From NCBI RefSeq assembly GCF_036365525.1, contig NC_090399.1, positions 42,812,430 to 42,876,429 of the forward strand: DNA of 64,000 nt, written 5' to 3'. This DNA is from Heterodontus francisci (lineage: Eukaryota). The notes below the pieces were generated by a model, which saw nothing but the letters and a program-made list of their open reading frames with translations, made no database searches and was not told the DNA's origin. The translations under genes were made by a program, and so were the position numbers. Shown here in pieces: positions 810-39,809 of the stretch (positions are counted from its first letter, which is position 1; each line of letters opens with the position of its first letter).

Positions 810-1549
810 CTGTAAGAGAGAGAAGGGAAAAGAGACAGGAAATTACTGATCAAACATTCTCCGTGTCTGACCCAGACAGTAAGGGCAGGATTTTAGCACA
901 AAAACAGGGGTCAGAGGTTAAAATATAGAAATCTTAACCCTGATCCCAACTGACCTCCAACCTGCCCACCTCCAGATCGGACTTCACCCCTCCGTGGGAT
1001 CTCACCCTACCACTCCCTGGAGTCAGACACCACCATCACTAGGACCATAACTCCCTGGGATCAGAGTCTCCTCCTTGGATGGGACTCCCCTACAGGCTCG
1101 GACCCGCTCTACCAGGATCAAACCACCTTCCCGTGTTCGGAAGCCCCCGAAAAATCAGGTTTCATCGTGTCTTGGATCAGTCACTCCCCTCGTCCTCCCC
1201 CGACTTGGACCACACTGTAGGAGAGGAGACCACTCCCCGGTGTTGAGGATCGACAGACCAGTGATCGGAGATGTCACCCCTCTCTCCCCCTCTGGAGATG
1301 GTGATTGGACACCCCCCGATATCAGGCATCTCCCCAAAACACCGGAGTCAGCATTTGGACCGCCCTGGTCTTGAGGCCTGCTCCAGAGTCCGCCCTGCCC
1401 GACTGGAGGCCAAGCCTGTCAATCAGGCTGACTTCAGGGTGGGGAACCTGTCAAGGATAAAAGAGGCAGTCTGTGGAGTTAAAACTCTGAAACTCTGCTC
1501 CCCACCTATGTCACTCACCCCTGTTAATATCCAGGAATAAACATTGGCG

Positions 1550-5220: not shown

Positions 5221-5288
5221 TCACTGAATAAAACCAGAGACCAGCTCGCACACAGATTTACACAACTTCAATGGCTATAGTCACTTAC

Positions 5289-5355
5289 CAGGAACACCAA
5301 TGACAGCAAGAATTGGGTAATATATTTTCATGATACTGTCAATAGGAAGATACAT
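5289..5355 (-). pseudogene. First coding exon of the GPR139/142-like pseudogene
   Basis: ATG at 5355-5353, MYLPIDSIMKIYYPILAVIGVP-G|gtaag (donor 5288-5284). Phase 1 joins in frame to the exon at 809 (G+TT=Val), giving TM1 YYPILAVIGVPVNLLAIVIL. Confidence 0.85.
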
Positions 5356-5649
5356 TTTCTGTGTGAAGTGATGTGTCCCTTTGTACTGCAGACAATCTCT
5401 CTGTATTAAACTCTGAGGCGACATTTTTCAAACTTTTTTTTAATTGAACAGATACATCAAGTTCAGTCCGTGTATATTTATATTTTTGATTTCTGAGATT
5501 GAATTGGAAAACTCCAAAGACTGGACAATTCTGATCACATTAAATAACTAATGAAAATTTGAAGCTGTATTCTCCAGCAATGAGGTTGTTCTTTCAAACA
5601 CCATCAGTCCCATCTCTAGATCTCATGTTGTTTCAGTGATGTCCTTCAC

Positions 5650-5807
5650 TCGACTGTGGTTCGGGTGGTGAAGAGCAGATTGTGGCCATTGTCCATCTGG
5701 GCCTTGAGCTGCAGGCTCTCATTGTAAAGCACAGTGAACTGGGACTGCAGTCAGTGAAACTCTGGGGAGTCCTTCACCATCTCACTGGCAAGAGTCTTCA
5801 GCTGTTC
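5650..5807 (-). pseudogene. Isolated pseudo-exon of BRE1 E3 ligase (RNF20/RNF40 family)
   Basis: After a pyrimidine tract and AG (5809-5808) it reads EQLKTLASEMVKDSPEFH*LQSQFTVLYNESLQLKAQMDNGHNLLFTTR. This matches, from memory, the RNF20/40 coiled-coil segment VKETPEY..MQSQFSVLYNESLQLKA.LD. One in-frame TGA. Confidence 0.75.
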
Positions 5808-21285: not shown

Positions 21286-21416
21286 CTATACAGGGAGAGA
21301 CAGACACTGCATTCAGATTCCACCCACCAGATTGTACAGTTAACACCAGCTGTCATAGCCCAGTTAGAAGGCCAGGGAAGGATCTGCTCATACGATTGAT
21401 CAACACGATTCATACC

Positions 21417-21463
21417 TCAGGCATTGGCGGAGGAGCTGGATGAGGATTCCCCTTTATCAGAAG
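21417..21463 (-). CDS. MHC class I heavy chain, last coding (cytoplasmic) exon
   Basis: ttaacag| (A)CT TCT GAT AAA GGG GAA TCC... = TSDKGESSSSSSANA*, then G|gtatg. Ser-rich tail typical of class I. Confidence 0.8.
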
Positions 21464-21636
21464 CTGTTAATGGAAGGACAGGCATTAACAAACTGTTCAC
21501 TATGAGAGATAGAGACAGAGTCAGTGAACAAGATACAAAGACAAAGAGAGAGAGAAAAATGGAGAGATGGACAAAGACAAAGACACAGATGCACACACAG
21601 AGAAAGAAAGACAGAGATAGAGCCAGCATGCAAGAT

Positions 21637-21645
<9 letters not shown>

Positions 21646-21692
<47 letters not shown>
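21646..21692. repeat. (AG)n microsatellite within a GA-rich intron
   Basis: About 23 perfect AG units. Confidence 0.95.
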
Positions 21693-21696
<4 letters not shown>

Positions 21697-21829
21697 GGAC
21701 AGAGACACAGAGAGAGTAAGGCAGAGATGGAGGAAGCCATAGAAATGAGCTGTTGTGTGTCAGACACCCAATGAGCAATGATTCACACAGTTACACAAAG
21801 ATCCAGATGATGTTTGATGGTCAGCTTAC

Positions 21830-21862
21830 TCTTTGTAGGATTGTAGCCGCTCGTCCCTGTCA
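21830..21862 (-). CDS. MHC class I heavy chain, cytoplasmic exon 1 (33 nt)
   Basis: tttttcag|TG ACA GGG ACG AGC GGC TAC AAT CCT ACA AAG A|gtaag = VTGTSGYNPTK. Contains the conserved cytoplasmic Tyr, phase 1/1. Confidence 0.85.
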
Positions 21863-21959
21863 CTGAAAAACAAGGAATACTCAGTGAGTGACAAGAGAAT
21901 AACAGAAAATCGGATTGGAGACAGGCAGGAACTCCGAATGAAAGCAAGAGACGGACCCT

Positions 21960-22355
21960 CCCCCACACTGAGCCCCTCTCTCCACCCTGAGCCCCGATCA
22001 TGGACCCCTCGTCCCCACCTTGATTCCCAATCCCGGTCCCCTCGTCCCAACCCTGAGCCCCGATTCTGGTCCCCTCGTCCCAACCCTGAGCCCCGATCCT
22101 GGTCCCCTCGTTCCAACCCTGAGCCCCGATCCTGGTCCCCTCGTTCCAACCCTGAGCCCCGATCCTGGTCCCCTCGTTCCAACCCTGAGCCCCGATCCTG
22201 GTCCCCTCGTCCCAACCCTGAGCCCCGATTCTGGTCCCCTCGTCCCAACCCTGAGCCCCGATCCTGGTCCCCTCGTCCCAACCCTGAGCCCCAATCCTGG
22301 TCCCCTCGTCCCAACCCTGAGCCCCGATCCTGGTTCTCTTGTGCCCACCCTGAGC
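21960..22355. repeat. 33-bp minisatellite (cctgagccccgatcctggtcccctcgtcccaac), about 11 units
   Basis: Near-perfect tandem copies in the TM/cytoplasmic intron. Four G-tracts per unit on the gene's sense strand. Confidence 0.95.
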
Positions 22356-22554
22356 TCCTTTGCTCCAAAATAAGCCCCACCTATGACTCTGGGCCCTCAG
22401 CTCAGCCTTTCCATCCTAAATCTGTACCCTTCCTCATGACCCTGAGCCTCACCCCCTACATCCTGAGCCTCACAGTCTGCCCTCCTCCACTCTCTGGGGC
22501 CCACGGCTTCCTCTCCCCCAGTGAGGCCCTGTCCATATTCTCTCCAATTCCTAC

Positions 22555-22665
22555 CTTTCCTCTTATAGACAGCGACAGCCACAATGACGAGAACGATGAT
22601 CAGCCCGAGGATCACAAGTACAATCCCGACAGTAACAGGGATCTGGGAGTCAGACTTTAGTCCTG
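22555..22665 (-). CDS. MHC class I heavy chain, connecting peptide/transmembrane exon
   Basis: ctccag|cag| tandem acceptor (22665 or 22662), (A)GLKSDSQIPVTVGIVLVILGLIIVLVIVAVAVYKRK G|gtagg. In frame with alpha3. Confidence 0.88.
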
Positions 22666-23050
22666 CTGGAGAGCGAGAGAATGAGAGAGAGAATCAGAGA
22701 TATCCCAGGATACAGCGTGTCCTTGTAGTACTATAATATCCCAAGACACACTAGGTCCAGTCGTACTGTAATATCCCGGGATATTAATCTGTTAATTGTG
22801 AATGAATTTTTTAATTATATGCAGTGGAGGGTGTTAATTGGGGACTTACTTAAGCACTTATAAGCAGACACTTACTGAGACTGGTAAAAGTATTTGACGG
22901 AGGGGCTACATGTTTGAAATCCTTTTACTCTGTACAAACTGAGTAAAAATAGGCTCCAGCATCATCCTTCTATAACAAGCTTTCTGGAGGTTACACCAGA
23001 ACCTGCCATACTGTAATATCCCAGGATACACCGGGTCCTGCTGTACTGTA

Positions 23051-23620
23051 TGTTGGAGAATTTTCTGAGCTTTGCTAATTATTACTTAACTTTGTAGAAA
23101 TAGAAAAACAGGACGCAGCTTGTAGCTAACCTAACCAATGGTCATAAAATGTAGACAGAGCAACTGACCACAATCAACTATCTTAGGAAGAGACAGAGCT
23201 CATGATGGATTTTGGGGAAGTGAACGCCGACTGTTCATTGCTGACTCTTCCGCTTTTATCATGTTTGTGCAACCTAGCCAGAAGTAACGGCCAGATATAG
23301 TCTGGAGTGGGCATTGAATTAAGGAACTAGCGTGTTATGCTCGAACTAACGCTCTACTGACCTCGGACTTTGCAAAGGGCACAGAGCTGCAGGTGGTCTT
23401 GTGGTTGTCCTGTGGTTTATGCTTAATTGTGAAACTGCTAGCTCTGCTTCTTTTACACTATATAAGTCCACGACGATTTGTAGCTGTCGGGAGCAGCACT
23501 GGACCACATTTAGGTAAGGTGTGCACCCCCATGATATCATGCAATAAAGTGTTTGATTCTCAACGTCCGAGTCCGGAGAATTTGTTCAACAATTGGGCAC
23601 AATCTGGGTTTTCTCCAACA
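23051..23620 (+). mobile_element. Solo LTR, 570 bp
   Basis: TGTTGGAGAA...TTCTCCAACA 10-bp inverted termini, perfect 5-bp TSD CTGTA (23046-50 and 23621-25), TATAA at 23461, AATAAA at 23543. Confidence 0.9.
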
Positions 23621-23635
23621 CTGTAATATCCCGGG

Positions 23636-24104
23636 TTTGGGGACAGATCAAAAGTAAGCTAACCAACTAATTATGAATTACTAACAAACTAACTGTGGAG
23701 CTGTGGAGACAGTTTATAAAAAAAACTCACAAGCAGAAGCTAACAGGACAGCTGCAGATAGCTTAATAGTAGCCTATTGTTTAATAATCAGCCTAACAGT
23801 TCAAGGAGGGGGGATGTGAAACTACTGAAATAAAATGCCAAAATAAAATAACCAATCATGCAATGATAACAGAAGTCTACAAACCACTCAGAAGCAAAGG
23901 GGAGGGGGGGGGGGGGTTACTAGTTTTGTTTGAATAGCTATAAGAAAGACTTGCTGTAGTGAGCACATGTTCTTTTGTTTTGCTCTTTTGTTTTGTTCTT
24001 TTGCATGTTCTTTTTCTTTGCTTTGTAACAATCACGTCCTGCAATAAAGTTTCTAAAAGTTACGATCGGACTTCGTCTCTCTTTGTAACTGATGGGATCT
24101 AACA
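23636..24104 (+). repeat. ERV 5' LTR
   Basis: tttggggacagatcaaaagt...AATAAA(24043)...gggatctaaCA, homologous to 30301-30782. Confidence 0.9.
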
Positions 24105-24107
24105 ACT

Positions 24108-24125
24108 TGGCATAGTCGGCAGGAT
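24108..24125 (+). promoter_or_regulatory. ERV primer-binding site, tRNA-Ser
   Basis: TGGCATAGTCGGCAGGAT versus TGGCGTAGTCGGCAGGAT, the complement of the vertebrate tRNA-Ser 3' end (ATCCTGCCGACTACGCCA). 17/18 match, 3 nt after the LTR. Confidence 0.85.
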
Positions 24126-24419
24126 CGCTGGAGGATTAAAACCGAAGCCCGAGACATCAGATCTATATCGGCACCCCGGAGGTAAGGACTCCTCTTTACG
24201 TTAAAAAGTCCTCGGCCGTTGTCTAATTTCGGTTCCCTACCACGCAATTTCGAACTTTTCTGAGGCTCGAGACCCCCTTATAAACGTCTGACTCGGCGGT
24301 ATTTGACAACATACCGACTCGGCTACAAAGCCCGCGGCTTGAGACCCCCTTCCCTCCCTGAATGAATCGATACAATGTGACGAAGACGACCGACAGTTAC
24401 CAAACACCGTCAAAGGCGG

Positions 24420-25847
24420 GCGGGCCCTGGCAGATGTTTCCAAAGATGAAATCCTTCGGCAGTTAAAAGGATATATAGAACAACAGTTGAATTTGGCTAA
24501 AACGTGTACCGAAATTGAACAGAAATATGGTGTCTCCAAGGGACAGTGGTCCTTGGAAGATATAAAGAGAGTTTGGGGAAAAATGACCCGTTTAAAGGAT
24601 AAAGAACGGACCCAACGGTCCTTGGCCGTTATGGGCCAGATCTGACAGAGTAATGAGATTATCCGACAAGCTGAACGCGACCGTGACCTGACCAATACGA
24701 AGGCGGTTTGCGAACAATTGAAGAGGGAAAAGCTTAAATCAGAAAAGTTAGAATCTGAAAACAAAGAGACAATTACGAGAAGAACAGGCAGCCCAGCCAA
24801 AGGGCCCGGGACCACCCTGCGGACCTCCACAGCCCCACTTGTACCCGAACATGGACTCATTACGCAAAGAACTACAGAAAACACAACGACGGGAAGCCGG
24901 TATAGAGGAAGCGGAGTCCTCCAGCAAGGAGAATAACTCGGATGATGAGCTTTCTTTTGCACAGCTCACCCCCTTAAAAACAGAAACGTGTTAAGGTCAA
25001 ACAGGAAAAGAAGACTACAGACGGCAATGAGGTGATCACGTCTGAGCACCAGACACACTGGATGCACGTCCCTGCGGACCCTGAGAAAATCGATAAATGG
25101 TCTGAAGAATTGCCAGACCCGAAAAAGGGAGCAGTTGGAATGTTTGAAGGGAATTTACAACCTCTACCCGTGGGACAGGGGACAGATTTTGACTGTAATG
25201 GTGCTCGGGCGAGCGGGCCGAAGACAGAACAGAGAGGTCCAAACCGCTCTGGGCGAGGACGAGCAACAACTAGATGCGGGATGGGCTGTGATTAGTCAGT
25301 GGCTGCTAGCGTTCTGCCCCGCAAAAACGGATTGGAGCAAAATTGCCGCATGTCAGCAAAAAGGTACCGAAGAGGTGCGGGAGTATGAAGAGAGGTTTAG
25401 ATCTACTTGGTTTGAATACTCGAGGATAACGGACCTTGCCCCGGAGGACTTCCGCTTCCCACGTCTGAAGTCGGCGTTTGTCACGGGATTAAAACCAGAA
25501 CTATCAAAGATGTTGAAGGTAAACCTACCGAATTGGGAAGGCACAGATATATCCTTCGCAATGTTGGTCGACCGGCCCAGTCAGCTGGACAGGGACTTGG
25601 CAGCGAAGCTCCGAGCTCTGCAGGGGGGTTGGGCATCCAGAGGCCCTGATAGGAAGCAAGATAGGTGACCTGAGACATGCCACTACTGCGGAAAGGAAGG
25701 CCATTGGGCTAAGATGTGTACAGCCAGGGGACGGGGAAGAGGACGGCACCAAGACCAGGTCCCTCCCCTGAGGGCAATGACCTTGAAGTCTTTAAACAGC
25801 TGACACCTCAGCAACGGAAAGAATTACTTGGTGCGGCAAAAAACTAG
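24420..25847 (+). pseudogene. gag: ERV gag (disrupted, start approximate)
   Basis: TDWSKIAACQQKGTEEVREYEERF (MHR-like), LKSAFVTGLKPEL, zinc knuckle CHYCGKEGHWAKMC at 25678-25719. Stops and frameshifts. Confidence 0.8.
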
Positions 25848-28800
25848 CAGAGCCCTCCCTCGCCTTCTCGGTGCCCCTCCTGGCGCTAATAGAACAACAA
25901 AGAGATGGATTGTATATAACCGTGAGGGTGGGCGATCAATATATAGACTGCCGAATGGATATCGGAGCCGAATTAACGTGTCTATCTCAACGATACAGGA
26001 ACTCTATACCGATGGACGGTAAAGTTAAGACCACCCACGGGGCTGGTGGATATGGGTTGGTGATCAGGAAAACTCAGCCCGTTCGCATTGGTCTTGGTCC
26101 ACACGAATTGATAACACCAGTCTGGATAGGTCCGGTGGACCAGGCCCTTCTGGGTATGGACGTTCTTACTCAGCTGAACTCCTCGTTGCATTTTGAAGGT
26201 GGCCAGTTAACATGGTCTATCAGAAGTCTGAAGAAGGAGGAGCTGAGGGAGCACCCAATATGGGCTCGGGATAAGAACGATTGTGGGCGACTTCAAATGG
26301 AACCGGTAACGTTTACAGGATCCGCTCCGCCCTGTACTATACAATACCCCATTAGTCCAACATCTATTGCAGGAATCTGACCCGTAATTAGACAGCTAGA
26401 GGAGCAAGGCATGCTGGTTAAAACACACAGTACCTCAAACAGCCCTGTGTAGCCAGTACGGAAACCAAACGGGACCTGACGGCTTACTGTTGACTATAGA
26501 AGGGCTAACCAGTGTATTGATCAAAAGACTCCTCTGGTAGCTGACCCCTCCACGGTATTCAATGCCCTGAGGCCGGAACATGAATGGTTCTCTGTTATCG
26601 ACATGGCCAATGGATTTTGTTCGGTGCCACTGGCACCCGAGGACCAACTGTGGTTCGCCTTTCCCGTTCGACAACAACAGTACACCTGGACCCGGCTGCC
26701 ACAGGGTTTCCACAACAGCCCTACGGTATTTCATATGGCCCTACAAAACCATTTGAGGGAGTTACCTTCCATACACTCCACGGTCATCCAGTACGTGGAC
26801 AACATCCTGTTAGCCTCTGAAACGGAAGAACAACACGAACAAGATCTGCTGGACCACCTTCATCGGAGAGGACACAAGGCCAGTATCGACAAAGCACAAA
26901 TTGCCCAAGAAGAGGTCGTGTACCTGGGACAAAAGATTTCAAATGAAAAGAGGGAACTTACCTCGGACAGGACCACAGCCATCCGGGCTGCCAAACAGCC
27001 CACCACTATCCAGGAGATTAGGTCCTTTCTGGGTTTGTGTAATTTCAACAGAAATTGAATCAACTCCTACACACAACTGGCTCAACCATTAACCGATCTC
27101 TTGAAGGGAAAGTGGGCCTCTAAAGAATCAGTTACTCTAGCCAAAGAACAAGAGGCCTTCGAAAGCTTAAAGAGGGCCTTGTGCTCGGCGCCAGCCCTGG
27201 GAATCCCCGGCAACGGGAAACCGTTTACCCTGTTTGTACATGAAAAAGAGGGATATATGACCGCCATATTGACACAGGAGCATGGGGACCAACAGAGACC
27301 TATTGGATACAATTCGAGAAAACAGGATGGGGCAGTTGTTTAAGGGCCATGGAAGCTACATGCCAAGCTGTGATGGCTACTGCAGGTCTGGTATTGGATC
27401 CAAAGCTAACAGTCAAGTGCCCGCACACTGTCCACACATTGCTGTCCATGAATAGAGAATCCCAAGTGACAGCAGCCAAATGGACCCAATGGACAACGGT
27501 CCTAGAGGCCCCCAGCCTCCATATAGTCCGAGCCAGCCTGATAAACCCAGCAACTATGCTCCCATTGCCTGGGGAGCAAGAGGGGGAAGAGCATGACTGC
27601 GTGGAGGCTATGATAGAGACAGAGAAAGTAACCTTAGCAGCAGAGGAGGCACTGCACAATCCAGATTTAATCCTTTTTACAGACAGCTCCTCCTTTGTTG
27701 ACAACGGTACCTGGAAAGCAGGATGGGCAGTTACAACCTTACACAAAGTCATGGCGACAGGATGTCTGCCCTCTGGGACGTCAGCCCAACAGGCGGAATT
27801 GCAGGTCCTGTCGGAGGCATGTCGGATAGCGGAGGGAAAGACGGCTAATATTTATATGGACTCACGATACACCTTTGGAGTTGCTCACGACATTGGTCAG
27901 TTGTGGCGTAAGAGAGGATTTCTCACTGCTGCTGGTACACCTATCCGAAACGGGGAAGAGGTTCGAGACTTGCTAGAGGCCATGCAATTACCACAAGAGG
28001 TGTCCATTCTGAAATGTAAAGCCTATACGAAGGACAATACCATAGAGGCACAGGGAAACGCCCTAACCGACCAGGCAGCCAAGGGAGCCACCTCGCAGGG
28101 TGATTCTTCGGATGTAGGGACGCAAATATGTAAACTGGGTGCACCCAGTCTGGCACAAGATCGACAAATGATGCAGAGCGAGTGCTCCAGAGACAAAAAA
28201 TGGAGATGGATAGAGGCAGGGATCAAGCGATGTGAAGACGGCATCTGAAGACAAAGGGACACCAATAGGCCAGTCGCGCCACAGGCGCTGATGTCCTTTT
28301 TAGCCCAACAGATTCACTCCTGGGGGCACCTGGCCCTGCAACAGATGACGGCTCGGTTCCAGAAAGGCTGGTGGGGTCGGGGGTTCAAAAAACAGGCCCA
28401 GCTGCTGGCTGACCGCTGTGTGGTCTGTCAGAAAAACAATCCAGGACCCACCACGATAATGCCTCAACTAAGAGCTCCTGCTCCAGCCGGCCCATTCCAG
28501 TGCTTGCAAGTTGACCATATCACTCTCCCACCTGGCCAGGGATACACCGGCATTCTCGTTATTGTCGACAGATTTTCCAGATGGTTACAGGCCGTCCCAG
28601 CCAGAAGAGCCACAGCCAACCACACCGCTATTCTGACCAAGGGACTCATTTTACAGGCGCGGTCTGTCAGGAAGTCTGTCGGCTACTGAACGTTACGTGG
28701 AATTTACACTGTCCTCAGGCGAAGTGGAGCGAATGAACCAGACCCTAAAGCAATGACTATCCAAGTATCACCAGGAAGGAATACCATGGCCCCAGGCATT

Positions 28801-29206
28801 GTCGATAGTTCTGTGCAGTATTAGGGCGACTCTGAACAGAACTACAGGCCTGAGTCCATTTGAAATAATAACAGGGAGACCCATGTCTCCGCCGGGAACA
28901 ATTGATTTGCAAAAAGCTGATTGTCACCTGATGAGTGATGGCTTACTGGAATATTGTCAGAACCTAACAAATGCTATCAGTTCTGCTTCTTCGCAGGTAT
29001 CGGCAGTTTGGGGTGACCCACCAGAAAGAGGGCACGACATCGTCCCGGGGGTCTGGGCCTACGTGAAGAAAATACATAAAGAACCATTGGGCGCCAAGTG
29101 GGAGGGACCTTTCCAGGTGCTACTGACCACCCAGGCAGCAGTTCAAGTCGAAGGGAAGAAAGCCTGGATACACGTCTCTCACGTCAAACGAGCGACCCGT
29201 GACTAA
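25838..29206 (+). pseudogene. pol: ERV pro-pol (protease, RT, RNase H, integrase; disrupted)
   Basis: MDIGAE..LLGMDVL (PR). VIDMANGF..TRLPQGFHNSP..QYVDNILLA (RT). FTDSSSF..SAQQAEL..IYMDSRY (RH). H-SWGH..CVVC, LQVDH..VDRFSRW, WEGPFQVLLTT..WIHVSHVK (IN with GPY/F module). Confidence 0.93.
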
Positions 29207-29353
29207 AGACCGACCAGTTATCAGGAAAATTAGCATTTGCCAATATGTTCAGAATTTTTATTATCCTCTTTGCATGCATTTTAAATATCTGCTTACTTTT
29301 AGCTAACCAAACCTTTCCACTTTGGGGAACTAATTGAGTGTCGGTAACAGCAT

Positions 29354-30185
29354 TTGCAACTATACTGTGTTCATAGACCCCCCCCAGGCAACAACGTCTC
29401 CATTTCCCTTTTTAATCACACAGGTCAAAACCATTGGAATCTCACGTTTCTGCCCAAGGCACTAAATGCTTCCAAATTCCCCTCCTATAGTGGCACTTAC
29501 TTTATTTGCGGCCACAAGGCCTATCCCTGGTTGCCGAAACTTTGGACAGGATCATGTTATTTGGGTTATGTTACACCTTACATCCATCACTTGACCTCCC
29601 TGCCTGTGCCACCTCACTGGTAAAGGATGAGGCGAGCTTTCACAGAGACGGAGAGATTCTTTGCGATCTTGTTTCCCTGGTATGGGACAGCTAAGCTGGC
29701 CAGGGAATCTATTAACATGGTCTCTGTTCTAGAAAAAGTTGCCAACGACACCGCTGAAGCCCTGGTTAAAATAAATACAGAAATGGTGGCTATCCGGACA
29801 GTGGCCCTTCAGAACCGAATGGCCCTAGATTTTATCCTTGCAGAAAAGGGGGGGTACTTGCGCCTTGATAGGGCCCGAATGCTGCACCTACATTCTAGAC
29901 AGCTCCAAAGAGATCTCTAATCTGGCGGAGCACATCGAAAAGGAGATAGAAAAGCTCAAACAACCCCCCAATCCCGCCTCATGGGGTTGGGCAACTGGTT
30001 GGTTGGGCTCAATAGGGACCTCAATGGTACATGGTTTGGTCTTTTTTGGTATAATCATAACTTTGTATTTTATGTTTTTGCTGATTAAGTGCTGTTGTAA
30101 ACAAGTAACTGAAGCCCCTGCCAAACTTATGCCTTTACAGAGCTCCCACCGCCCCCTCTTGTGGCACAAGTGGGCAACGTATTAA
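29354..30185 (+). pseudogene. env: ERV env remnant (SU C-terminus plus gamma-type TM)
   Basis: FICGHKAYPWLPKLWTGSCYLG, RMRR/AF cleavage, fusion peptide FFAILFPWYG, ISD LQNRMALDFILAEKGG, CX6CC (CALIGPECC), TM helix. Stop near 29621 and frameshift in the G-run near 29850. Confidence 0.9.
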
Positions 30186-30300
30186 GCGCAACCCCTCTGG
30201 GTGTTGACGGCTGTTTCTAGACAAGTAGAGACCATTAAAGGCACCAAGGTGGGATTGATGGAAAGATTCTTAAAGAAGTTTGAAGAGTCAAAGTGGGGAC

Positions 30301-30782
30301 TCTGGGGACAGATTAAAAGTAAGCTAAATCAGCAAACAAACTAACTGTGCAGTTGTGGAGCCAATTTATAAAACATAACAGCCTAAGAAGCTAACAGGAC
30401 AGCTGCAGATAGTTTAATAGTAGAGTATTGTTTAATAATCAGCCTAACAGTTCAAGGAGGGGGAATGTGAAACTACTGAAATAAAATGCAAGAATAAAAT
30501 GCTGAGTCGAATGAACCAATCATGGACTGATAATAGAAGTCTGCAAACCACTCAGAAATAAGGGGGGGGGGGGGGGAGGCGTTACTAGTTTTGTTTGAAT
30601 AACTATAAGAAAGGCTTTTATATAAGAAAGACTTGCTGCAGTGAGCACATGTTCTTTTGCATGTTCTTTGTTTTGCTTTTTGTTCTTTTGTACCCTTGCA
30701 ACGTAACAACCATATACGGCAATAAAGTTTCTAAAAGTTATGGTCGGACTTCGTCTCTCTTTGTAACCGATGGGATCCAACA
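30301..30782 (+). repeat. ERV 3' LTR (preceded by PPT-like aagagtcaaagtggggac)
   Basis: tctggggacagattaaaagt...AATAAA(30721)...gggatccaaCA. Confidence 0.9.
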
Positions 30783-31025
30783 GTTACTTACAAAATATTG
30801 TTTAGTTAATGGGAATTTTTAGTTTAGATAAATCTTGCCCTGTAATTCTTGAAATTGCTCTGGGAATGTCAGATCTTGTGTTTTACCATTAACGGTCTCA
30901 CTGAGGTGGAAACACTGTGTATCCTGGGCCTCAGCCTGTCCTGGGCTGGTAGCTCAGCACTGACCCTCCCTCCTGTGCTCCTGCTCTGAGGCTGGGTCCC
31001 CTCTAACAGTGAGAGACAGTCTTAC

Positions 31026-31289
31026 CATAAATCACCACCATCATCTCCGTCAGCCCGCTGTGCTCCACCCGACAGGAATACTCAGCCTGGTCTTCCGGAT
31101 CAAACTCTATCCATTTCCGGATCTGGTAGGTTCTGTCGTGATTGGGTAAAATCCCAGAGGACAGGATCTCATCGATCATCACTCCATCTCTCCACAGAGT
31201 CACCTCGATGGCCTGAGGGTAAAACCCAGTGACGACACAGGACAGCCGGTTAGAATCACCTGGACGTGTAAAGGACACGACGGGGGCGA
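31026..31289 (-). CDS. MHC class I heavy chain, alpha3 (Ig C1) exon
   Basis: ctctcag|(V)APVVSFTRPGDSNRLSCVVTGFYPQAIEVTLWRDG...ILPNHDRTYQIRKW...YSCRVEHSGL...IY G|gtaag. 264 nt, C1-set motifs. Confidence 0.95.
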
Positions 31290-31399
31290 CTGAGAGAGAG
31301 AAAGAGGAATCAGTACAAGAAGCTTGAGGTTGTGTGTCCCGGAGCACCCCACCCCCCCGCCAATTCACCAACTCACACTTGCCCTCAGATACCCCCACG

Positions 31400-31926
31400 A
31401 CTTCACTCACCGATTCTTGGTCCATTCATCCGCACATCCCCTCATTCACCGACTCTCAGTCCCTCCCTCCCTTCACTCTCCGACTCTCGGTCCCACCCCC
31501 CTCACTCACTCACTGACTCTCAGTCTCTCCTCCTCAATATCTCACCGACTCTCTGTCCCCCCACCTCGCTCACCGACTCTCAGTCCGTCTGTTCCCCCCC
31601 TGCTCACCGACTCAGTCCCTCCCCCTCACTCACTCACTGACTCTCAGTCCCTCCCCCTCACTCACTCACCGACTCTCAGTCCCTCCCCCTCACTCACTCA
31701 CCGACTCTCAGTCCCTCCCCCTCACTCACTCACCGACTCTCAGCCCCTCCGTCCCCCCTCGCTCACCGACTCTCAGTCCCTCCCCCTCACTCACTCACCG
31801 ACTCTCAGCCCCTCCGTCCCCCCCTCGCTCACCGACTCTCAGTCCCTCCCCCTCACTCACTCAACTCTCAGTCCCTCCCCCTCACTCACTCACTGACTCT
31901 CAGTCCCTCCGTCCCCCCTTACTCAC
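31400..31926. repeat. ~32-bp tandem repeat containing the alpha2 exon end and splice donor
   Basis: About 16 units of ctcactcaccgactctcagtccctcccc (sense: ...CTGAGAGTCG|GTGAGT...). Confidence 0.9.
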
Positions 31927-32199
31927 CGACTCTCAGTTCTCGCTGTCCGTACAGCAGGTATTTCCTCAGCCACTCAATACACTCCTCCTCCAAGTAATTC
32001 TTCCAGCCCAGATTGCCAACTCTGTCCTGGTTCCAATTGTGTTGGATGTTCTGCCCCCATGGGACCGGTGTCACCCACACCATGTGATCCTTGTCAAAGC
32101 TGAGGAAGTCTCGTCCGTCCCAGCCGTACTGGTTGAATCCAGTGCTGGTCCCATCGTCCCGCAGGTCACAGCCGGTCATCATCTGGATTGTACGGATCC
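31927..32199 (-). CDS. MHC class I heavy chain, alpha2 exon
   Basis: ttgacag|(G)IRTIQMMTGCDLRDDG...QYGWDGRDFLSFD...W...NYLEEECIEWLRKYLLYGQRELRV G|gtgagt. 273 nt, with C101/C164, W147, Y159, Y171. Confidence 0.96.
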
Positions 32200-32214
32200 C
32201 TGTCAATAAGACAC

Positions 32215-32460
32215 ACCCAGCCAATCAGACCCAGTACCGCTGGGAGCCCCCGCCCACCACAAAAACAGCCAATCAGGCACAATGACAATAGGCGACCCCA
32301 CCCACTATCCCCCAGCTAACAGCCAATCAGATCCAGTCCCACTGGGAGACCCCGCCCACCACACAGCCAATCAGCCTCTGTCCCACTGGGAGACCCCACC
32401 CACTATTCCCCAGCTAACAGCCAATCAGACCTAGTCCCACTGGGAGACCCCGCCCACTGC
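32215..32460. repeat. ~50-bp repeat with five AGCCAATCAG (CCAAT) boxes alternating with CCCCGCCC/CCCCACCC boxes
   Basis: CCAAT at 32221, 32269, 32323, 32367 and 32421. Confidence 0.8.
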
Positions 32461-32629
32461 CTGTTATTAATCACCTGGGGAGATGGGGCATTTAAAGAAG
32501 CCCCGGAACCCAACGGTGTATTTAAAAGGACAGGTGCTGTAGGATCTGTAAACTGAAAGGGCCCCAGGAAACCAATCTGTATATATAAAGAAACGTGATC
32601 TACATATTTTAAAGAGCACTTGGATGCTG

Positions 32630-33105
32630 ATCTGTCTATTTAAAAGGACACCCCTGGACCTTGTTCTGTGTATTTAAAGCAACATTCCCCCACATCCGAA
32701 CCCTGTTCTCTATTTAAAGGAGCACTCCCCCTTTTCTGGACCCTGTTCTGTATATTTACAACAACACTCACCACCACCTTCTCAAGGGCAATTCGGGATG
32801 GACAATAAATGGTGGCCTCGCCAGCAATGCCCACATCTCCCGAGCGAATGAAAAAAAAATACTGCCCTGACCCCGAGCCCTCTTTCTGTGTACTTAAAGG
32901 AACACTCCCCCACCCCCAGACCTGGTTCTGTGTATTTAAAGGAACACCACCCTGCCCCCAGACCTTGTTCTGTGTAATTAAAGGGACATTCCCCCACATC
33001 CAAACCCTGTTCTGTGTCTTTAAAGGAATACCCCACCCGGACTCTGTTCTGTGTACTTAACTGAACACTCCCGCAACCTCAAATCTTGTTCTGTATAATT
33101 TAAAA
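32630..33105. repeat. ~42-bp minisatellite (tgttctgtgtatttaaaggaacactccccc), left segment, with a LINE 3' tail inserted at ~32768-32859
   Basis: Degenerate tandem units. The same unit resumes at 34025-34043 and 38940-39400. Confidence 0.8.
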
Positions 33106-34024
33106 TGTTACGACCAGGTGAGAAATGTGTCTAGGGGTCTATTACTATCTTCACCTGGTCTAGGGGTTACTATCTTCACCTGGTCTTATTGCAACAGGGT
33201 TTAATTTTAAATACACTGTGTATTGAACTCCCCCTTTGTGAATCCTTGTTCACAACTTTCCAATTATAAGGCAAAGAAATGAGCAGAAACAGGTTTTCTT
33301 TGGTTTAAAGAAGAAAAGTGAAATTTACTAAACTTATTTAAACTTAAACTCTAAGATGGTTCACACCTACGGATATATGACACACCCATGCTAGCATGCA
33401 CAGACGATTCACACATGCAAATAGGAACAGAAAAGAGAGGAAATTATAAGGTGAAAGGTTTAAGGCAGTCTATAATGGAGGTTCTTTACTGTGCTTCGAG
33501 CTCACTTGATTGTTGGTAGTCTTGCTGTTCATCGGGGCCCAGTGTTCTTCTTAAACCTTATTCACATAGGAGAATTTTCTCTCTTTGAGGTTCACATGTT
33601 TTCACAAGATTCAATTCCCTGAGAGATGGGCAGGCAGACAGGAGAGAGATGTTCTCAGTCCAAGAGCAAACAGCCTTCTGATTTTCAAACACACTGCGGC
33701 AAGTTCAAAATTCAAACAACTCCAACAGTCAGCCAGCCATGTAATCGAACCAGTCCGGCCACATCTGTTTGTGTATTCGGCCATCTTTGCAGTTAACCTG
33801 GAATGCTAGCATTTCCACCTTCAACGCCTGGTAATCAAACGTCCACTATGGATTAAATTGGAGCAGGGAATTGCTCCTTTGTCCTTGGAAGTACTTGTCT
33901 GTTGAGATGCTAATGTCTCTTTCCAGCCAAAGTTTCTAATTGTTTTTTTAAAGCAGTTTAAAATCAAAGTTCATGTGGCAAAATTAATTTCCCTCATTCT
34001 TGGCCAGTGGGGGTTTGCCTGACA
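33106..34024. mobile_element. Solo LTR-like element (~920 bp)
   Basis: TGTTA...TGACA termini. It interrupts a minisatellite unit (aaaa|...|aaag near-TSD). The left end recurs at 11838 and the right end recurs inverted at 36919-36972. Confidence 0.7.
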
Positions 34025-35823
34025 AAAGGAACATTCCCCCACCTGCCTGGAGGGAGTTGGGATTGGCGGCGGATCTGTGAGGAACCAGTTACCAGGGAGT
34101 GTATAAAGCGAGACCCAGGCTCAGGGCCTTCACCTACCTGGAGGGAGTCGGGAGAGGCGGCGGATCTGCGAGGAACCAATTACTATGGAGTGTGCAAAGC
34201 GAGACCCAGGCTCAGGGCCTTCACCCACCTGGAGGGAGTCAGGAGAGGCGGCGGATCTACGAGGAACCTGAAGCGTATAAAGAGAGACCTAGGCTCAGGG
34301 CCTTCACTGACCTGGAGGGAGTTGGGAGAGGTGGCTGATCTGTGAAGAGCCAATTAGATGCCGGAGTTTAAAAAAAACACCATTGCATCACAGGAAAGTC
34401 ATGAGTTGATTGGCTGGTGAGTATTGCTGCTTTGAGACTGAGTTTAAACAATTGAGAATTTAAATCATTAAACATTTTAAGTATTAATCACAAGTAACAA
34501 GTGAGTAGCTGGTGAGTCTTGTCTTTTATTTTTAAATAAGCTTTATAACTATTGGTGAGGTTAATTCTACTATTGGGAACATTTTAGTATTGGTAGGATG
34601 TATTAATAGTGGTAAGGTTTATCAGTATTGGTAGTTTCTTATTAGCAATGGTAAAGTTATTATGACTATTGGTAAGGTTTATTACTACTGGTAGGATTTA
34701 TTAGTAGTAGCACGGCTTATTAGTAGCATGGTTTAATTGTAGTACCAAGGTTTATTATCTAACAGACAGAGAAATGGCAGGGTTGCTCCAACCTCTGGAG
34801 GGCACATCCTGTGTTGTGTGGGAACTCCAGGACACTTCCCATATCCTGGTAAACCATATGTGCTGGAATTGTCAGCAGTTGCAAAGCCTGAGCTCTGGGT
34901 TTCAGAACTTAAGCAACAACTGGTGTCACTGCGGAGCATCCGTGAGATTGATAGCTTTGTGGATAGCACATTTATAGATGTGGTCACCCTGCAGCTTAAC
35001 AGTGTATAGGAAAAGAGGAATAGATGACCACCAGACAGTCAGGTAGTGAAGGAGACCCCTGACTGCATCTCATTCTCCAACCAGTATTCAGTTCTGAATA
35101 CTGATGATTGTTCACCTGGGGAGTGCAGTCAGAGCCGAGGCCATGGCACCACGGGTGGCTCAGCTGCACAGGGGAGCACAATGAGGCAATAGTGATAAGA
35201 GATTCAATAGTCAGGGGAACAGACAGATGTTTCTGTGACAGCAGACGTGAATCCAGGATGGTGTGTTGCCTCCATGGTGCCAGGATCAAGGATGTCACTG
35301 GCTGCAGAGCACTCTGAGGGGAAAGAGGGAACAACCAACAGTCATGGCTCATACTGGTAACAACATAGTTAGAATGAGGGATGTGGCCCTGCAGAAAGAG
35401 TTTAGTGAGCTTGGTAAGAAATAAGCAAGTAGGACCTCAAAATTAGTCATCTCCAGACTGCTCCCAGTGCCACATGCAAATGAGTATAGAAATAGGACGA
35501 TAGTGCAGATGAATGCACGGCTGGAAAGATGTTCCAGGAGGGAGGGCTTTAGATTCCTGGGACACTGGGACCAGTTCTGGAGAAGGTGGGACCTGTCAAG
35601 ACTGGGTGGGTTGCATCTGAACAGAGCTGGGACAAATGTCCTCGTGGGGCGATTTGCTAGTGTTATTGGGGAGAGTTTAAACTAACTTGGCAGGGCTGTG
35701 GGAACAGTGAGATAATACAAGAAAGGACACCAAGATGCACAGAGAATTGAAAGAGACCGATAGCATTAGAGTAGGAAATAGGAAAGTATTACGTGATGTC
35801 TGAGTGAGAGTGTTAGTACTTGA

Positions 35824-36443
35824 TCATAGAGTCATTTACAGCACAGAAGGAAGCTGTTCGGCCCGTCGAGTCTGTGCTTTCTCTCCACTGAGCTATCCAG
35901 TCAGTCCCACTCCCCTGCTCAATCCCCATTGCCCTGCAAGTCTATTTCTCTCAGGTGGCCATCCGACTTCCTCTTGAAGTCATTGATCGTCTCCGCTTCC
36001 ACCATCCTTGTGGACAGCGAGTTCCAGGTCATTACCACCCACTGTGTAAAAAGTGCTTCCTCATATTCTCCCTGCATCTTTTGTCCAAAACCTTCAATCT
36101 GTGTCCCCTAGCCCTTGTACCATTAGTTAATGGGAACAGTTTTTCCTCTAAGCTTGTCATAATCTTGTCCATTTCTATTAAATCTCCTCTCAATCTCTTT
36201 TGTTCTAAGGAGAACAAACCCAGCTTTTCCAACCTAACATTGTAACTAAAATCCTCCATCCCTAGAACCATTCTGGTAAATATCCTCTGCACCTTATCTC
36301 GGATCCTCACATCCTTCCTGAAGTGTGATAACCAGAACTGAACAGGATACTCCAGTTGGGGCCTAACCAGAGATTTATAAAGGTTCAGCACAACTTCCCT
36401 GCTTTTGTGCTCAATGCCTGTGTTTATGAAGCCCAAGATCTCA
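35824..36443 (-). mobile_element. CR1 3' fragment inserted in inverted orientation inside a CR1 of its own family
   Basis: Reverse complement of ~38300-38937 (LYKSLVRPQLEY..RLRGDLIE). Confidence 0.85.
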
Positions 36444-36984
36444 TATGTTTAAAGAAGGGAATAGTTCCATATTGGATGGGAGTGAATGGAAAAGGACTAT
36501 GAAGAATGCAAAGACAGGATTACAATGTACATGTGTAAACACAAAAAGTGTGGTGAATCAGGTTGGTGAGCTACAAGCACAAATAGCATTCTGGGAATAT
36601 GATATGGTGGCAATAACGGAAACATGGCTTACAAATGGCGGGGACTGAGTGCTTAATATACAAGGATAGATGTTCAGCAAAGATAGAGAAGGAAATAAGG
36701 GAGGTGGGGTGGCAGTCCTGATTAGGGAAGACATTGCAGTGCTGGAAAGGGAGGATGCATGGAAGGGGTAAGGACAGAATCCATTTGGTTAGAGTTGAGG
36801 TGCAAAAAAGTCTATGATAACAGTCCTAGGAGTATTGTATAGTGAGAGAGATAGAAGAGCAAATCTGCAGGGAAATCACAAAGATGTGCAATAACTATGC
36901 AGTGGTGATACTGGAGGATGTCAGGCAAACCCTCCACCTGCCAAGAATGAGGAAAATTAATTTCGCCACATGGTGGGTGGAATG

Positions 36985-37703
36985 TCAAGGGAGATGGTTA
37001 GGTTCTCCGTTTTTGGAGATGGTCATTGCCTGGCAATTGTGTGGCGTGAATGTTACTTGCCACTTATCAGCCCAAGCCTGCATATTGTCCAGGTCTTGCT
37101 GCATTTCCACACAGACTTCCTCAGTATGTGAGTCATTGTGAATGGTGCTGAACATCGCACATTTATCAGCGAACATCCCCACTTCTGATCTTATGGTTAA
37201 AGGAAGGTCACTGATGAAGCAGCTAAAGATGGTTGGGCCTAGGACACTACCTTGAGGAACTCCTGCAGTAATGTCCTGGAGCTGAGATGATTGACCTCCA
37301 ACAACCACAGCCATCTTCCTCTGCGTTAGGTATGACTCCGACCAGCAGAGAGTTTTCCACCTGATTCCCATTGATTCCAGTTTTGCTAGGGCTCCTTGAT
37401 GCCATACTCTGTCAAAGGCAGTTACTCTCACCTCACCTCTTTTGTCCATGTTTGGACCAGGTTTGTACTGAGGTCAGGAGCTGAGTGGCCGTGACTTGGA
37501 ACTATATCCCCGTTCCTTCACTGTCACTAGGTCAAAGGCCTGGATCTTCCTTCCTAACAGCACTGTGGGTGTACCTACCCAACATGGACTGCAGCGGTTC
37601 AAGAAGGCAGCTCACCAGCACCTTCCCAAGGGCAATAAGGGATGGACAATAAATGCTGGCCTAGCCAACGTTGCCCACATCTCCTGAACGAATGAAAAAA
37701 AAT
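36985..37703. mobile_element. 5'-inverted LINE insertion (family of 12200-14257)
   Basis: 36985-37490 is RT on minus (AGVPQGSVLGPTIF..FADKC). 37491-37703 is the 3' end on plus, ending gaatgaaaaaaaa. Confidence 0.8.
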
Positions 37704-38939
37704 CATGCTTGACTAATCTAATTGAATTTTTTGATAAAGTAACAGGGAAGGTTGATCAAGGAAATGTTGTGGATGTTGTTCATGCGGATTGTAAAAAGGT
37801 ATTTGATAACAGACAACATAAAAGGCTGATCAACAAAATTGAGGCTCATGGAATAGGTGGATCAATGCCCAATTGGATAAAAAAAAAAATTGGCTTAAGG
37901 ACAGAAAACAGCGAGTTATAGTAAATGGTTGCTTTTCAGAATGGAGCGGGTAGACAGTGGTGTTCCCCAAGGGTCAGTGCTGGGATCAATGCTTTTATGT
38001 ATGTTGTAAAAATGACTTGGATCTTGAAATACAGAAACAAATCCCAAAATTTGCTAATGACACCAACTTGGAGAACTTGAACTGCCTGCATCAGGACATA
38101 GATAGGACATAGTGCGCAGAAAGGGGCAGATGAAGTTTAACACAATGTGAGGTAATGCACTGTGGCAGAAGGAATAGGGAGAGGCAGTATATACTTAATG
38201 GCACAGTTCTAAAGAGTGTGCAAAAACAGAGGGACCTGGGGGTGCATGTGCATAGATCTTTGAAGGTTTCAGGACATATTGAGAGAGGATTAGTAAAGCA
38301 TATGGGATCTTGGGCTTCATAAATAGAGGTACTGAGTACAAATGCAGGAAGATTATGCTGAGCCTTTATAAAGCTCTGGTTAGACCCTAACTGGAGTATT
38401 GCTTCCAATTCTGGTCACCACACTTCAGGAATGATGTGAGGGTCCTTGAGAGGGTGTAGAGGAGATTTACCAGAATGGTTCCAGGGATGGAGGATTTTAG
38501 TTACAAGGTTAGGTTAGAAAAGCTGGGTTTGTTCTCCTTGGAGCAAAGGAGATTGAGGGAGATTTAATAGATGTGTAGAAGATTATGACAGGCTTAGATA
38601 AGGTAATCAAGAAAAACTGTTCCCATTAACTAATGGTACAAGGACCAGGGGACACAGATTGAAAGTTTTGGGTAAGAGATGTAGGAGGAGGTTGAGGAGA
38701 AACGTTTTTACGCAGCAGGTGGTAATGACCTGGAACTCACTGCCCACAAGGATGATGGAAGCAGAGACGATCAATAACTTCAAAAGGAAATTGCACGGCC
38801 ACCTGAGAGAAATAAACCTGCAGGGCTAGGGGGATTGAGCATAGCAGTGGGACTGAGTGGACAGTTCAGTGGAGAGTCAGCATGGACTTGATGGGCAAAT
38901 GGCCTCCTTCTGTGCTGTAAATGACTCTATGTCTATGAC

Positions 38940-39400
38940 CCCTGGACCCCATTCTGTGATTTAATGGAACAGTCTCCCACCCCCCACAACGCTGTTCTGT
39001 GTATTTAAAGCAACACTCCCTCACTCTTGGTGCACTGTGTATTTAAAGGAACACTCCCCCAACACCCCTCCCCCCCCACCCCGTTCTGTGTATTTAAAGG
39101 AACACTCCCTCACTCCGAAACCTTGCTCTGTGTATTTAAAGGAACACTCCCCCAACATCCACCCACCTCCCCCCCACTGGTTCTGTGTATTTAAAGGAAC
39201 AGTTCTTCACTCCTGGACACTGCTCTGTTTATTTAAACGAACACTCCCCCACCCCCGGACCCTGTGCTGTGTCTTTAGAGGAACACTCCCTCACTCCGAG
39301 ACATTGCTCTGTGTATTTAAAGAAACACTCCCCCACCCCCGGACCCTGTGCTGTGTGTTAAAGGACACCCAGAAATTGATCTGTGTATTTAATGAAACGA
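38940..39400. repeat. ~42-bp minisatellite, right segment
   Basis: About 10 units of ctgtgtatttaaaggaacactccc. Confidence 0.85.
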
Positions 39401-39548
39401 CTATCCCATTGGGCACTACCCTGTGGAACTACTTTTCTCGGGTGCATTGCCTCCCTGATCCTGCTCCACTTCCAGCTTCGCCCCATTCCATCCCGGATCC
39501 GTCAACTCACAGAAAGAGGCCGAGCGAAGTAGGAGGTTGAGGACTCAC

Positions 39549-39809
39549 CCGCTGACTGGTTGGCTCGGGACATGAGGATCGGAATACGGGCCTTGAACTT
39601 CATCTCTCGCTCCTGTGCCAGGAACTTCTTCCGTGCCCAAGCCTCAGGCCCTTCACTCTCCACCATCCACTGCTCCCGAGGAATCAACTCCTTCCGATCG
39701 CTGTCGTACATAACAAACTGGACATCGTCAACATAACCGACACCCACAAACTCCGGGAAACCAGGATTTGGAGTCATGGACGTGAAGAAATACCGGAGAG
39801 AGTGAGAGC
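39549..39809 (-). CDS. MHC class I heavy chain, alpha1 exon
   Basis: tttttcag|(G)[37 protein letters not shown]...PREQWM..EGPEAW...[10 protein letters not shown]|gtgagt. 261 nt, N86 glycosylation site NQS. Confidence 0.96.

Follow-up and report, generated by a model that had tools for sequence, protein, structure and literature searches.

A spliced non-classical MHC class I gene of the elasmobranch UBA lineage in Heterodontus francisci and its remodelled groove

The class I gene studied here raises the question of whether a horn shark molecule that has given up several classical peptide anchors is intact, to which lineage it belongs and what its groove would hold. The window, i.e., the whole stretch of DNA analysed, comprised 64,000 nucleotides of Heterodontus francisci (assembly GCF_036365525.1, contig NC_090399.1, positions 42,812,430 to 42,876,429). 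A preliminary description of the window had proposed an intact non-classical class I gene whose A and F pockets are altered and which possibly binds a non-peptide or atypical ligand.

Gene structure and splicing

The class I gene was found to contain six coding exons on the minus strand of the window (Table 1), without any internal stop codon. The five introns between them were all GT-AG and all in phase 1. The mature chain was 328 or 329 amino acids long when counted with G1 and 327 or 328 when counted from S2, in agreement with the six exons and the open chain of about 329 residues described earlier. A tandem CAGCAG acceptor of exon 5 (22665 or 22662) takes one alanine in or leaves it out, and the RefSeq X1/X2 forms match the two outcomes. 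Exon 3 encoded R93, I143, N146, W147, W156, Y159, E163, and Y171 together with C101-C164. The transmembrane helix comprised residues 291-320 in the structure model. A further intron, with its donor one base past the stop codon, was joined to a 3'-UTR exon at 5807; the loose ends of the run contigs (28 nt in X1 and 25 nt in X2) matched only 5779-5806, behind an AG acceptor. The search for a leader within the 64,000 nucleotides returned satellite-derived false candidates only. The true leader exon was found outside, 66.8 kb upstream and beyond the satellite, and intron 1 was 66,815 nt long.

All five introns between the six coding exons appeared joined in contigs of public runs. None of the listed runs was recorded as RNA, and their RNA status is the guess of the tool, although DNA would hardly account for exon joints as exact as these. 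The contigs lose rare variants and cannot rank expression, and contig depth was not taken as an expression level. A joint between 23661 and 30590 in contig X1 was discarded as similarity of one LTR to the other. The gene is intact and spliced, its transcription being read from the joints in the run contigs. A pseudogene was ruled out by the open frame, the leader, the exon joints, and purifying selection. The decay of neighbouring elements, as described before, was seen again: the exon of a neighbouring GPCR carried a frameshift and stops, and the retrovirus in intron 4 (LTR, gag, protease, RT, RNase H, integrase, env pieces, LTR) was broken into short frames.

Table 1. Features of the class I gene and its surroundings (positions are those of the window unless a contig is given).
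Feature	Position	Strand	Description
Leader exon	G000:C29:42919054-42919102, outside the window		sequence MIGLIVLVLLCGGVSA
Exon 2	39549-39809	-	alpha-1 domain (Y7, A59, K63, L66, R84); joint to alpha-2 in run contigs X1, X2
Exon 3	31927-32199	-	alpha-2 domain; both joints in run contigs X1, X2
Exon 4	31026-31289	-	alpha-3 C1-set domain; joints in run contigs
Exon 5	22555-22665 or 22662	-	connecting peptide and transmembrane helix; both joints in run contig X1
Exon 6	21830-21862	-	cytoplasmic, tyrosine motif GYNP
Exon 7	21416-21463	-	serine-rich tail; stop codon 21419-21417
Exon 8	5430-5807	-	3'-UTR; start shown, end presumed from ATTAAA at 5444
Broken endogenous retrovirus	23639-30782	+	inside intron 4, antisense, removed by splicing
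43-45 bp satellite	39827-64000		occupies the bulk of intron 1; total length about 58 kb

Lineage and genomic position

The spliced product showed no differences from the RefSeq proteins XP_067865801.1/XP_067865803.1 and differed from the horn shark protein AAC60348.1 (O19480) in 1 of 328 mature residues. The latter shared the leader, the long acceptor, I220, and V283 with the studied gene; the one difference, K versus T at the groove-facing HLA position 73, is either an allele or a cloning error. The trees comprised 64 rows, none of them UCA, UDA, UEA, UFA, UGA, CD1, or MR1, and 36 of them formed the UBA clade. The studied gene was placed in this clade with nurse shark Gici-UBA (AAC60347) with a support of 100/99 for alpha1-3 and 100/98 for alpha1-2. 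Grouping with shark UAA was rejected by the AU test (p=7.2e-6; 3 window-type rows and 9 shark UAA rows), in which the group was defined after the tree had been seen. On the trees and the database identity, the gene belongs to the already described elasmobranch non-classical class I lineage UBA, and its protein was already deposited. The preliminary description had left a known or a new lineage to choose from; a new one is excluded. The UBA label was taken from the supplement of PMC10751288, with row P0059 matched by eye to the UBA rows there. The literature search on accessions and clone names gave no match in main texts. The database names of AAC60348.1/O19480 and of the RefSeq models omit "UBA".

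Gici-UBA (AAC60347/O19479) was 66, 66, and 83% identical to the studied gene in alpha1, alpha2, and alpha3, respectively. Both contained K63, L66, A67, I143, W156, E163, V31, and E49 and had lost Y59, whereas Gici-UBA has F59, R146, F159, and H93 in place of A59, N146, Y159, and R93. Gici-UBA is no one-to-one orthologue, since the horn shark copies form an expansion of their own. The family was multicopy on contig C29, with 8 matches at 75-100% for alpha-1 and 8 at 94-100% for alpha-3, and a more divergent group of copies was found at 46.1-46.5 Mb. UFA/UGA look-alikes were separate loci elsewhere on the contig, with about 32-35% identity.

UBA is described as lying in the MHC yet at a distance from the class Ia region, with c4 on one flank (PMC10751288) and rxrb on the other. 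The studied gene was at 42.85 Mb and PSMB8 at 65.90 Mb on C29, 23 Mb apart, whereas class Ia is tightly linked to PSMB8/9 and TAP. The horn shark classical gene, with 8 of 8 anchors, was at C29:66.35 Mb, 0.45 Mb from PSMB8. A C4-like exon was found at 31.86 Mb, 11 Mb from the studied gene; the UBA paralogues start from 32.07 Mb, and C4 adjoins the family, as published for UBA. Candidate anaphylatoxin-domain matches were also present at 30.92 and 46.03 Mb.

Groove residues, selection and variation

In HLA-A2 numbering, the studied gene was found to keep Y7, R84, W147, Y159, and Y171 and to contain A59, I143, N146, and R93; all of the residues called earlier were read identically. Five of the eight peptide anchors were kept, and no row of the UBA clade kept more than 6 of 8. 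From the class Ia set (Y7, Y59, R84, T143, K146, W147, Y159, Y171) the gene departed by A59, I143, and N146. Y59 was found in 0/36 UBA-clade rows versus 21/25 class I rows of sharks and rays outside the clade. I143 was contained in 28/36 clade rows (in another tally, 26/34 versus 0/25 of the others) and K63 in 31/36 (in another tally, 29/33 of the rows with any residue at this site), across sharks and a sawfish. K63 was paired with an acid at 163 in 28/34 clade rows versus 1/25 others. Since E63 occurred in just 10/25 other shark and ray rows, what is unusual is the presence of K63 and not the loss of E. Among the clade rows having a residue there, L66 was present in 30/33 and L45 in 31/33. 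R84 was kept in 28/36 rows, W147 and Y159 in 27/36 each, and W167 in 36/36; several members lacked W147, Y159, or R84. R93 was nearly private (3/36: the studied gene, its cDNA, and its duplicate) and is therefore no lineage feature. Judged by these residue counts, the remodelled groove is a signature of the whole UBA lineage. The K63/E163/A59/I143 signature may already be listed in the primary UBA papers.

Over 37 positions that we take to face the groove, the mean hydropathy was -0.05 in the studied gene versus +0.31 in nurse shark UAA and +0.51 in the horn shark classical gene; the earlier wording "hydrophobic" does not hold for these positions. The clade mean was 0.13 versus -0.31 in other shark class I rows, the rows not being independent. 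The net charge of the groove-facing positions was +4 in the studied gene, with a clade mean of +2.3 versus +1.3 in the others. The aromatic cradle was kept.

A measure of selection, as suggested by the preliminary description, was clear outside the groove, where pN/pS was 0.39-0.48 with the interval below zero, and purifying selection acts there. Within the groove, pN/pS among paralogues was 0.88-0.94 with intervals spanning zero; positive selection was not shown, and the values fit relaxed constraint as well as diversification. In the horn shark paralogues, conservation at the A/B end did not exceed that at the C-F end (pN 0.25 vs 0.31). In two paralogues, 6 residues of the alpha-1 helix were deleted, and some paralogues had lost most anchors. 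Low polymorphism and restricted expression are general traits of class Ib. Five samples from a second organism (organism B) showed M35V and E166D as the only listed changes, in contigs that drop rare variants, and the groove residues of the studied gene were unchanged at the listed sites. The structure model took on an ordinary class I fold and was matched best by the peptide-loaded shark UAA 6LUP. The Foldseek matches to MR1 had about 40% identity, the same as classical chains of chicken, carp, and duck, and are thus not discriminating.

Putative ligand and comparison with other class I systems

The studied UBA member may well be a surface molecule bound to beta-2-microglobulin that holds peptide-like cargo C-terminally without the classical N-terminal lock; to this reading, drawn from the sequence, we give an even chance. 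Counting against it are the inconstancy of E63 in the other shark and ray rows, the groove pN/pS of 0.88-0.94, the A/B end of the horn shark paralogues being no better conserved, and the clade members that lack W147, Y159, or R84. Pairing with beta-2-microglobulin is suggested by the kept T10, R48, Q96, and D119, the contact residues of class I being taken from PMC8236899. In classical class I, the amino terminus of the peptide is bound via the Y7-Y59-E63 water network (PMC8236899). The pockets were read from residue numbering, rather than from model coordinates. The A pocket of UBA would be changed by A/S59 and K63, with E163 opposite, and as K63 would disfavour a free amine, N-blocked or N-extended peptides are suggested. 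The F pocket would be more apolar yet usable, I143 costing one hydrogen bond to the carboxylate and R84 and W147 staying. The paralogues vary in the central and C-terminal parts of the groove and would therefore each carry their own cargo, to be seen by innate-like T cells or NK-type receptors. The intact, non-classical molecule with altered A and F pockets proposed earlier gains support, that of the pockets coming from residue identity. It is unlikely that UBA, which sharks and rays share, turned the classical A pocket (A/S59, K63, L66, A67, T99, E163) into a conserved binding site dedicated to a single chemical class of ligand, e.g., N-blocked microbial peptides or an anionic metabolite, with the paralogues varying the rest of the groove; sharks would then have their own counterpart of H2-M3 or MR1, independently derived from the classical gene. 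Our literature search, with most subscription papers outside its reach, found no paper on a UBA ligand.

We also doubt that UBA uses K63 at the A/B end to bind a small anionic or carbonyl-bearing non-peptide (a metabolite, or a phosphorylated or acylated compound), in the manner of MR1 but with a different lysine. The conservation of K63, L66, and L45 across the clade and the positive charge of the groove would suit such a ligand, and the loss of Y59 would open a cavity, but the site of MR1 K43, the Schiff-base lysine on the floor of the groove, which we take to be HLA position 45, is Leu. Moreover, residue 63, high up on the helix, may do no more than pair with E163, R84 and W147 of the F end are mostly kept, and the structural matches to MR1 do not discriminate. 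A closed or empty groove is quite improbable; the molecule would then be a stress or self marker or a direct receptor binder, like HFE, MICA, or FcRn, and the groove changes tolerated drift. The groove pN/pS near 1, the paralogues without most anchors, the two helix deletions, and the bulky F74, R77, R70, and W156, which could fill the cleft, are consistent with it, whereas Y7, Y159, W167, and Y171 persist in most of the 36 rows and the listed groove sites did not vary in organism B. Presentation of lipids, as by CD1, is very unlikely, since the groove is polar and basic: I143, L66, F74, and W156 are apolar and the clade mean of hydropathy exceeds that of other shark rows, but the studied protein falls below two classical molecules and keeps 5/8 peptide anchors, and the CD1-like genes of sharks are UFA and UGA (PMC12562908), with look-alikes at other loci. 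Of the atypical ligands supposed earlier, the hydrophobic lipid type is thus disfavoured by hydropathy and the kept aromatic cradle, and the small anionic type retains some probability. A divergent UAA allele or Ia-like copy presenting ordinary TAP-delivered peptides is hardly credible and already largely refuted, for although shark UAA is the nearest match in fold and the UBA clade sits within UAA-like genes in the trees, the AU test, 5/8 versus 8/8 anchors, 23 Mb versus 0.45 Mb to PSMB8, and the very little variation observed argue against it.

Elasmobranch class Ib lineages are described as being of yet unknown function (PMC10751288). As the gene and the lineage were already known, there is little new in the finding as such. 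The function of UBA can, however, be approached through the K63/E163/A59/I143 signature, and the studied gene, with its complete sequence and splicing firmly established, lends itself to refolding and ligand elution.

Classical shark UAA (Gici-UAA*01, PDB 6LUP; the horn shark 66.35 Mb gene) has the same fold, exon plan, and GYNP tail, and 55-72% identity per domain to the studied gene, which keeps five of its eight anchors. The studied gene differs by the absence of Y59, T143, and K146, the presence of K63, its separate clade, and its distance from PSMB8. MR1, CD1, and shark UFA/UGA share the non-classical class I fold, whereas, unlike MR1 and CD1, the studied gene has no lysine at the presumed MR1 K43 site and no hydrophobic groove. 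Xenopus XNC4 and other mhc1-uba class Ib genes form an expanded family away from the class Ia gene, as here. XNC4 is reported to have a hydrophobic F pocket and possibly to bind long peptides, on unpublished data (PMC12562908). The likeness to XNC4 is one of functional analogy only, with a presumably independent origin, and the shared name implies no orthology.

Gene structure, transcripts and surroundings

The window gene was found to be a real, intact, expressed and already known horn shark UBA class Ib gene. The motifs quoted in the preliminary description were present in place on the minus strand, and its six exons, spliced GT-AG in phase 1 into an open chain, were borne out; the chain contained 327 or 328 residues counted from S2. 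MHC_I and C1-set domains (Pfam) were found in the predicted chain, and its AlphaFold model (input alignment of 67 rows, mean pLDDT 82.6) contained the usual sheet, two helices, Ig domain and transmembrane helix, the top structural match being 6LUP, the peptide-loaded nurse shark UAA. A leader exon was located outside the window, behind an intron 1 of 66,815 nt, and contigs of two public sequencing runs (X1 and X2, from one sample, their RNA status being the tool's guess) jointly spanned all five introns between the coding exons at the predicted sites; the doubt whether the gene has a leader or transcripts therefore fell away. Both exon 5 acceptors were seen in X1 contigs. The loose end of a contig directly after the stop codon matched only 5779-5806, behind an AG, and so marks a 3'-UTR exon 15.6 kb downstream. 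In a contig of X8, a run from a second organism (organism B), exon 6 was joined at window 21832 straight to the 3'-UTR exon and exon 7 was skipped; such skipping would alter the cytoplasmic tail. Upstream of the leader were candidate kappaB-like, CCAAT/Y-box-like and ISRE-like words.

The alpha-1 exon query matched, at 99%, the class I protein O19480/AAC60348.1 of Heterodontus francisci. With the short acceptor the spliced product was the same as XP_067865801.1, and with the long acceptor the same as XP_067865803.1; compared with AAC60348.1, presumably the cDNA of Bartl et al. (1997), it showed a single difference in 328 positions (HLA position 73, K versus T). A second deposited horn shark protein, O19481, resembled the alpha-1 of a 67.03 Mb gene at its start and the 66.35 Mb gene in alpha-3, with a longer helix region; allelic recombination or a chimeric clone could account for this.

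Features of the window gene and its surroundings (G000:C29 is the contig carrying the window; other positions are those of the window)
Feature	Position	Strand	Remark
Leader exon MIGLIVLVLLCGGVSA	G000:C29:42919054-42919102		outside window; phase-1 donor
Coding exons	39549-39809, 31927-32199, 31026-31289, 22555-22662/22665, 21830-21862, 21417-21463	-	GT-AG phase-1 introns, open frame
43-45 bp satellite	39827-64000, onward to G000:C29:42910344		inside intron 1, ~58 kb total
Endogenous retrovirus, broken	23639-30782	+	intron 4, antisense to host gene
Solo-LTR-like insert	23051-23620		9-bp inverted ends; directly adjoins retrovirus 5' LTR
Two-exon GPCR-like gene	5283-5370 and 1-810	-	frameshift and stops

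The neighbouring elements and GPCR were decayed, as had been described. The retrovirus contained a truncated 5' LTR, its LTRs differed at 65/448 aligned sites (14.5%), and its primer-binding-like site at 24108 is presumably of the tRNA-Ser type. The GPCR-like gene, which we take to be GPR139-like, had its first exon beginning ~70 bases past the MHC gene's putative polyadenylation signal. The satellite ran 34 kb beyond the window (G000:C29:42876430-42910344).

A copy at 42.46 Mb of the same contig was ~96-99.9% identical blockwise, mostly >99%, and included the retrovirus, the leader and ~51 kb of the satellite. This segmental duplicate (G000:C29:42421001-42561000), ~391 kb away, kept mostly >99% identity over at least 140 kb, and is either a real duplication or an assembly artefact. 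The retrovirus was present in both copies and is thus older than the duplication. The duplicate contained I220T and V283G (a Gly in the transmembrane helix) and no long exon 5 acceptor, so AAC60348.1 and the X1 long-acceptor joint derive from the window copy.

Lineage, genomic position and variation

IQ-TREE (LG+G4) trees were built from a selection of 64 rows (3 outgroups plus 61 proteins from sharks and rays), which omit fused, partial and redundant hits as well as UCA-UHA, CD1 and MR1. The spliced protein was placed inside a 36-row clade with nurse shark UBA (Gici-UBA; support 100/99 for alpha1-3, 100/98 for alpha1-2 alone). Placement with nine shark UAA rows, a group named after the tree was seen, was ruled out by the AU test (p-AU 7.2e-6). 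The gene almost certainly belongs to UBA; of the two lineages suggested earlier, a known shark non-classical one or a new one, the former stood and the latter did not. In the supplement of PMC10751288, AAC60347, the accession adjacent to AAC60348, is labelled Gcirratum_UBA, and a 2025 review (PMC12562908) cites Bartl et al. (1997) for UBA, as an expanded family derived from UAA.

PSMB8 was found at 65.90 Mb and, 0.45 Mb from it at 66.35 Mb, a class I gene in which the eight anchors are all present, the window gene being at 42.85 Mb. Its paralogues were found at 32.07-32.9, 40.36, 42.3-42.7 and 46.1-46.5 Mb; a C4 exon at 31.86 Mb adjoined paralogues, as did further hits to the anaphylatoxin domain (30.92 and 46.03 Mb). 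These positions fit the c4-flanked multicopy UBA cluster, set apart from the class Ia region, that PMC10751288 describes. Loci at 49.5-54 Mb resembled UDA, UCA/UEA, UFA and UGA by eye, at an identity of only 28-44%.

Two UBA paralogues, L007 (42.33 Mb) and L008 (40.36 Mb), contained an in-frame 6-residue alpha-1 helix deletion (~63-68) removing K63, and most anchors were gone. The loci L016, L024, L026, L053, L054 and L057 (46.1-46.5 Mb) formed a long-branch subgroup related to UBA, in which residue 171 is C, the alpha-1 floor is hydrophobic and the groove is acidic; Stegostoma and Hemiscyllium hold related long-branch genes, a join on which the tree warns. At 57-63 Mb, the class Ia-like genes L010-L019 were nearly identical to one another and lay in an array; they had the full set of eight anchors but a different alpha-3 type, and resembled UAA-2 of the PMC10751288 supplement.

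Among seven horn shark paralogues, pN/pS was 0.48 in non-groove codons (0.39 for the four closest; bootstrap pN-pS intervals below zero) and 0.88 in groove codons (0.94; intervals spanning zero). The frame of the paralogues is conserved; the groove is relaxed or diversifying, and the test fits both. In organism B, the spliced orthologue was found in five samples (two studies), and the alpha1-2 differences listed were four synonymous changes, M35V, and E166D in three samples. This suggests low variation; ~two differences per exon near contig ends are unlisted, however, and contigs drop rare alleles.

Groove residues and candidate cargo

The residues called earlier (A59, I143, N146 and R93, with Y7, R84, W147, Y159 and Y171 kept) hold in HLA-A2 numbering, for which motifs and the alignment in the PMC10751288 supplement served as anchors. 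Judged from 36 clade and 25 other rows, the changes are features of the UBA lineage, apart from R93, which was confined to the window gene, its duplicate and its cDNA. Y59 was present in 0/36 clade rows (A20, S10, F4, G1, W1) versus 21/25 others, T143 in 2/36 (I in 28) versus 25/25, K146 in 5/36 versus 23/25, and K63 in 31/36 versus 1/25; K63 with an acid at 163 was found in 28/34 non-redundant clade rows versus 1/25. L66 (32), W156 (28) and E163 (30) were frequent in the clade, and R84 (28), W147 (27), Y159 (27), Y171 (27), W167 (36) and Y7 (27, with 4 gaps) were mostly retained. This signature may already be described in Bartl 1997, Almeida 2020 or 2021, or their supplements.

According to PMC8236899, the amino terminus of the peptide in classical class I is held in part through a water molecule that Y7, Y59 and E63 bind, and T10, R48 and Q96 are beta-2m contacts; these three were retained in the window protein. 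In UBA, a small residue at 59 together with K63 would disfavour a free amine, and K63 may pair with E163; at the C-terminal end, I143 would cost one hydrogen bond, with R84 and W147 staying. Since the amino end would disfavour a free amine, R84 and W147 remain and the beta-2m contacts are kept, a peptide-like cargo is favoured, and we put at about even the chance that UBA holds it at the C-terminal end with its N-terminus blocked or overhanging. We infer the whole ranking: below the peptide-like cargo, a small anionic ligand is unlikely, an empty groove slightly more so, a lipid cargo improbable and ordinary classical function very improbable. No paper on a UBA ligand was found in the literature searched.

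Over 37 positions that we take to be groove-facing, the window protein had a net charge of +4 and a hydropathy of -0.05, lower than in nurse shark classical class I (Gici-UAA, +0.31) and the horn shark classical gene (+0.51), whereas the clade's higher mean (0.13 versus -0.31 in other rows) mildly points the other way. The domain identities of the window gene were 66/66/83% with Gici-UBA and 61/59/55% with Gici-UAA, respectively.
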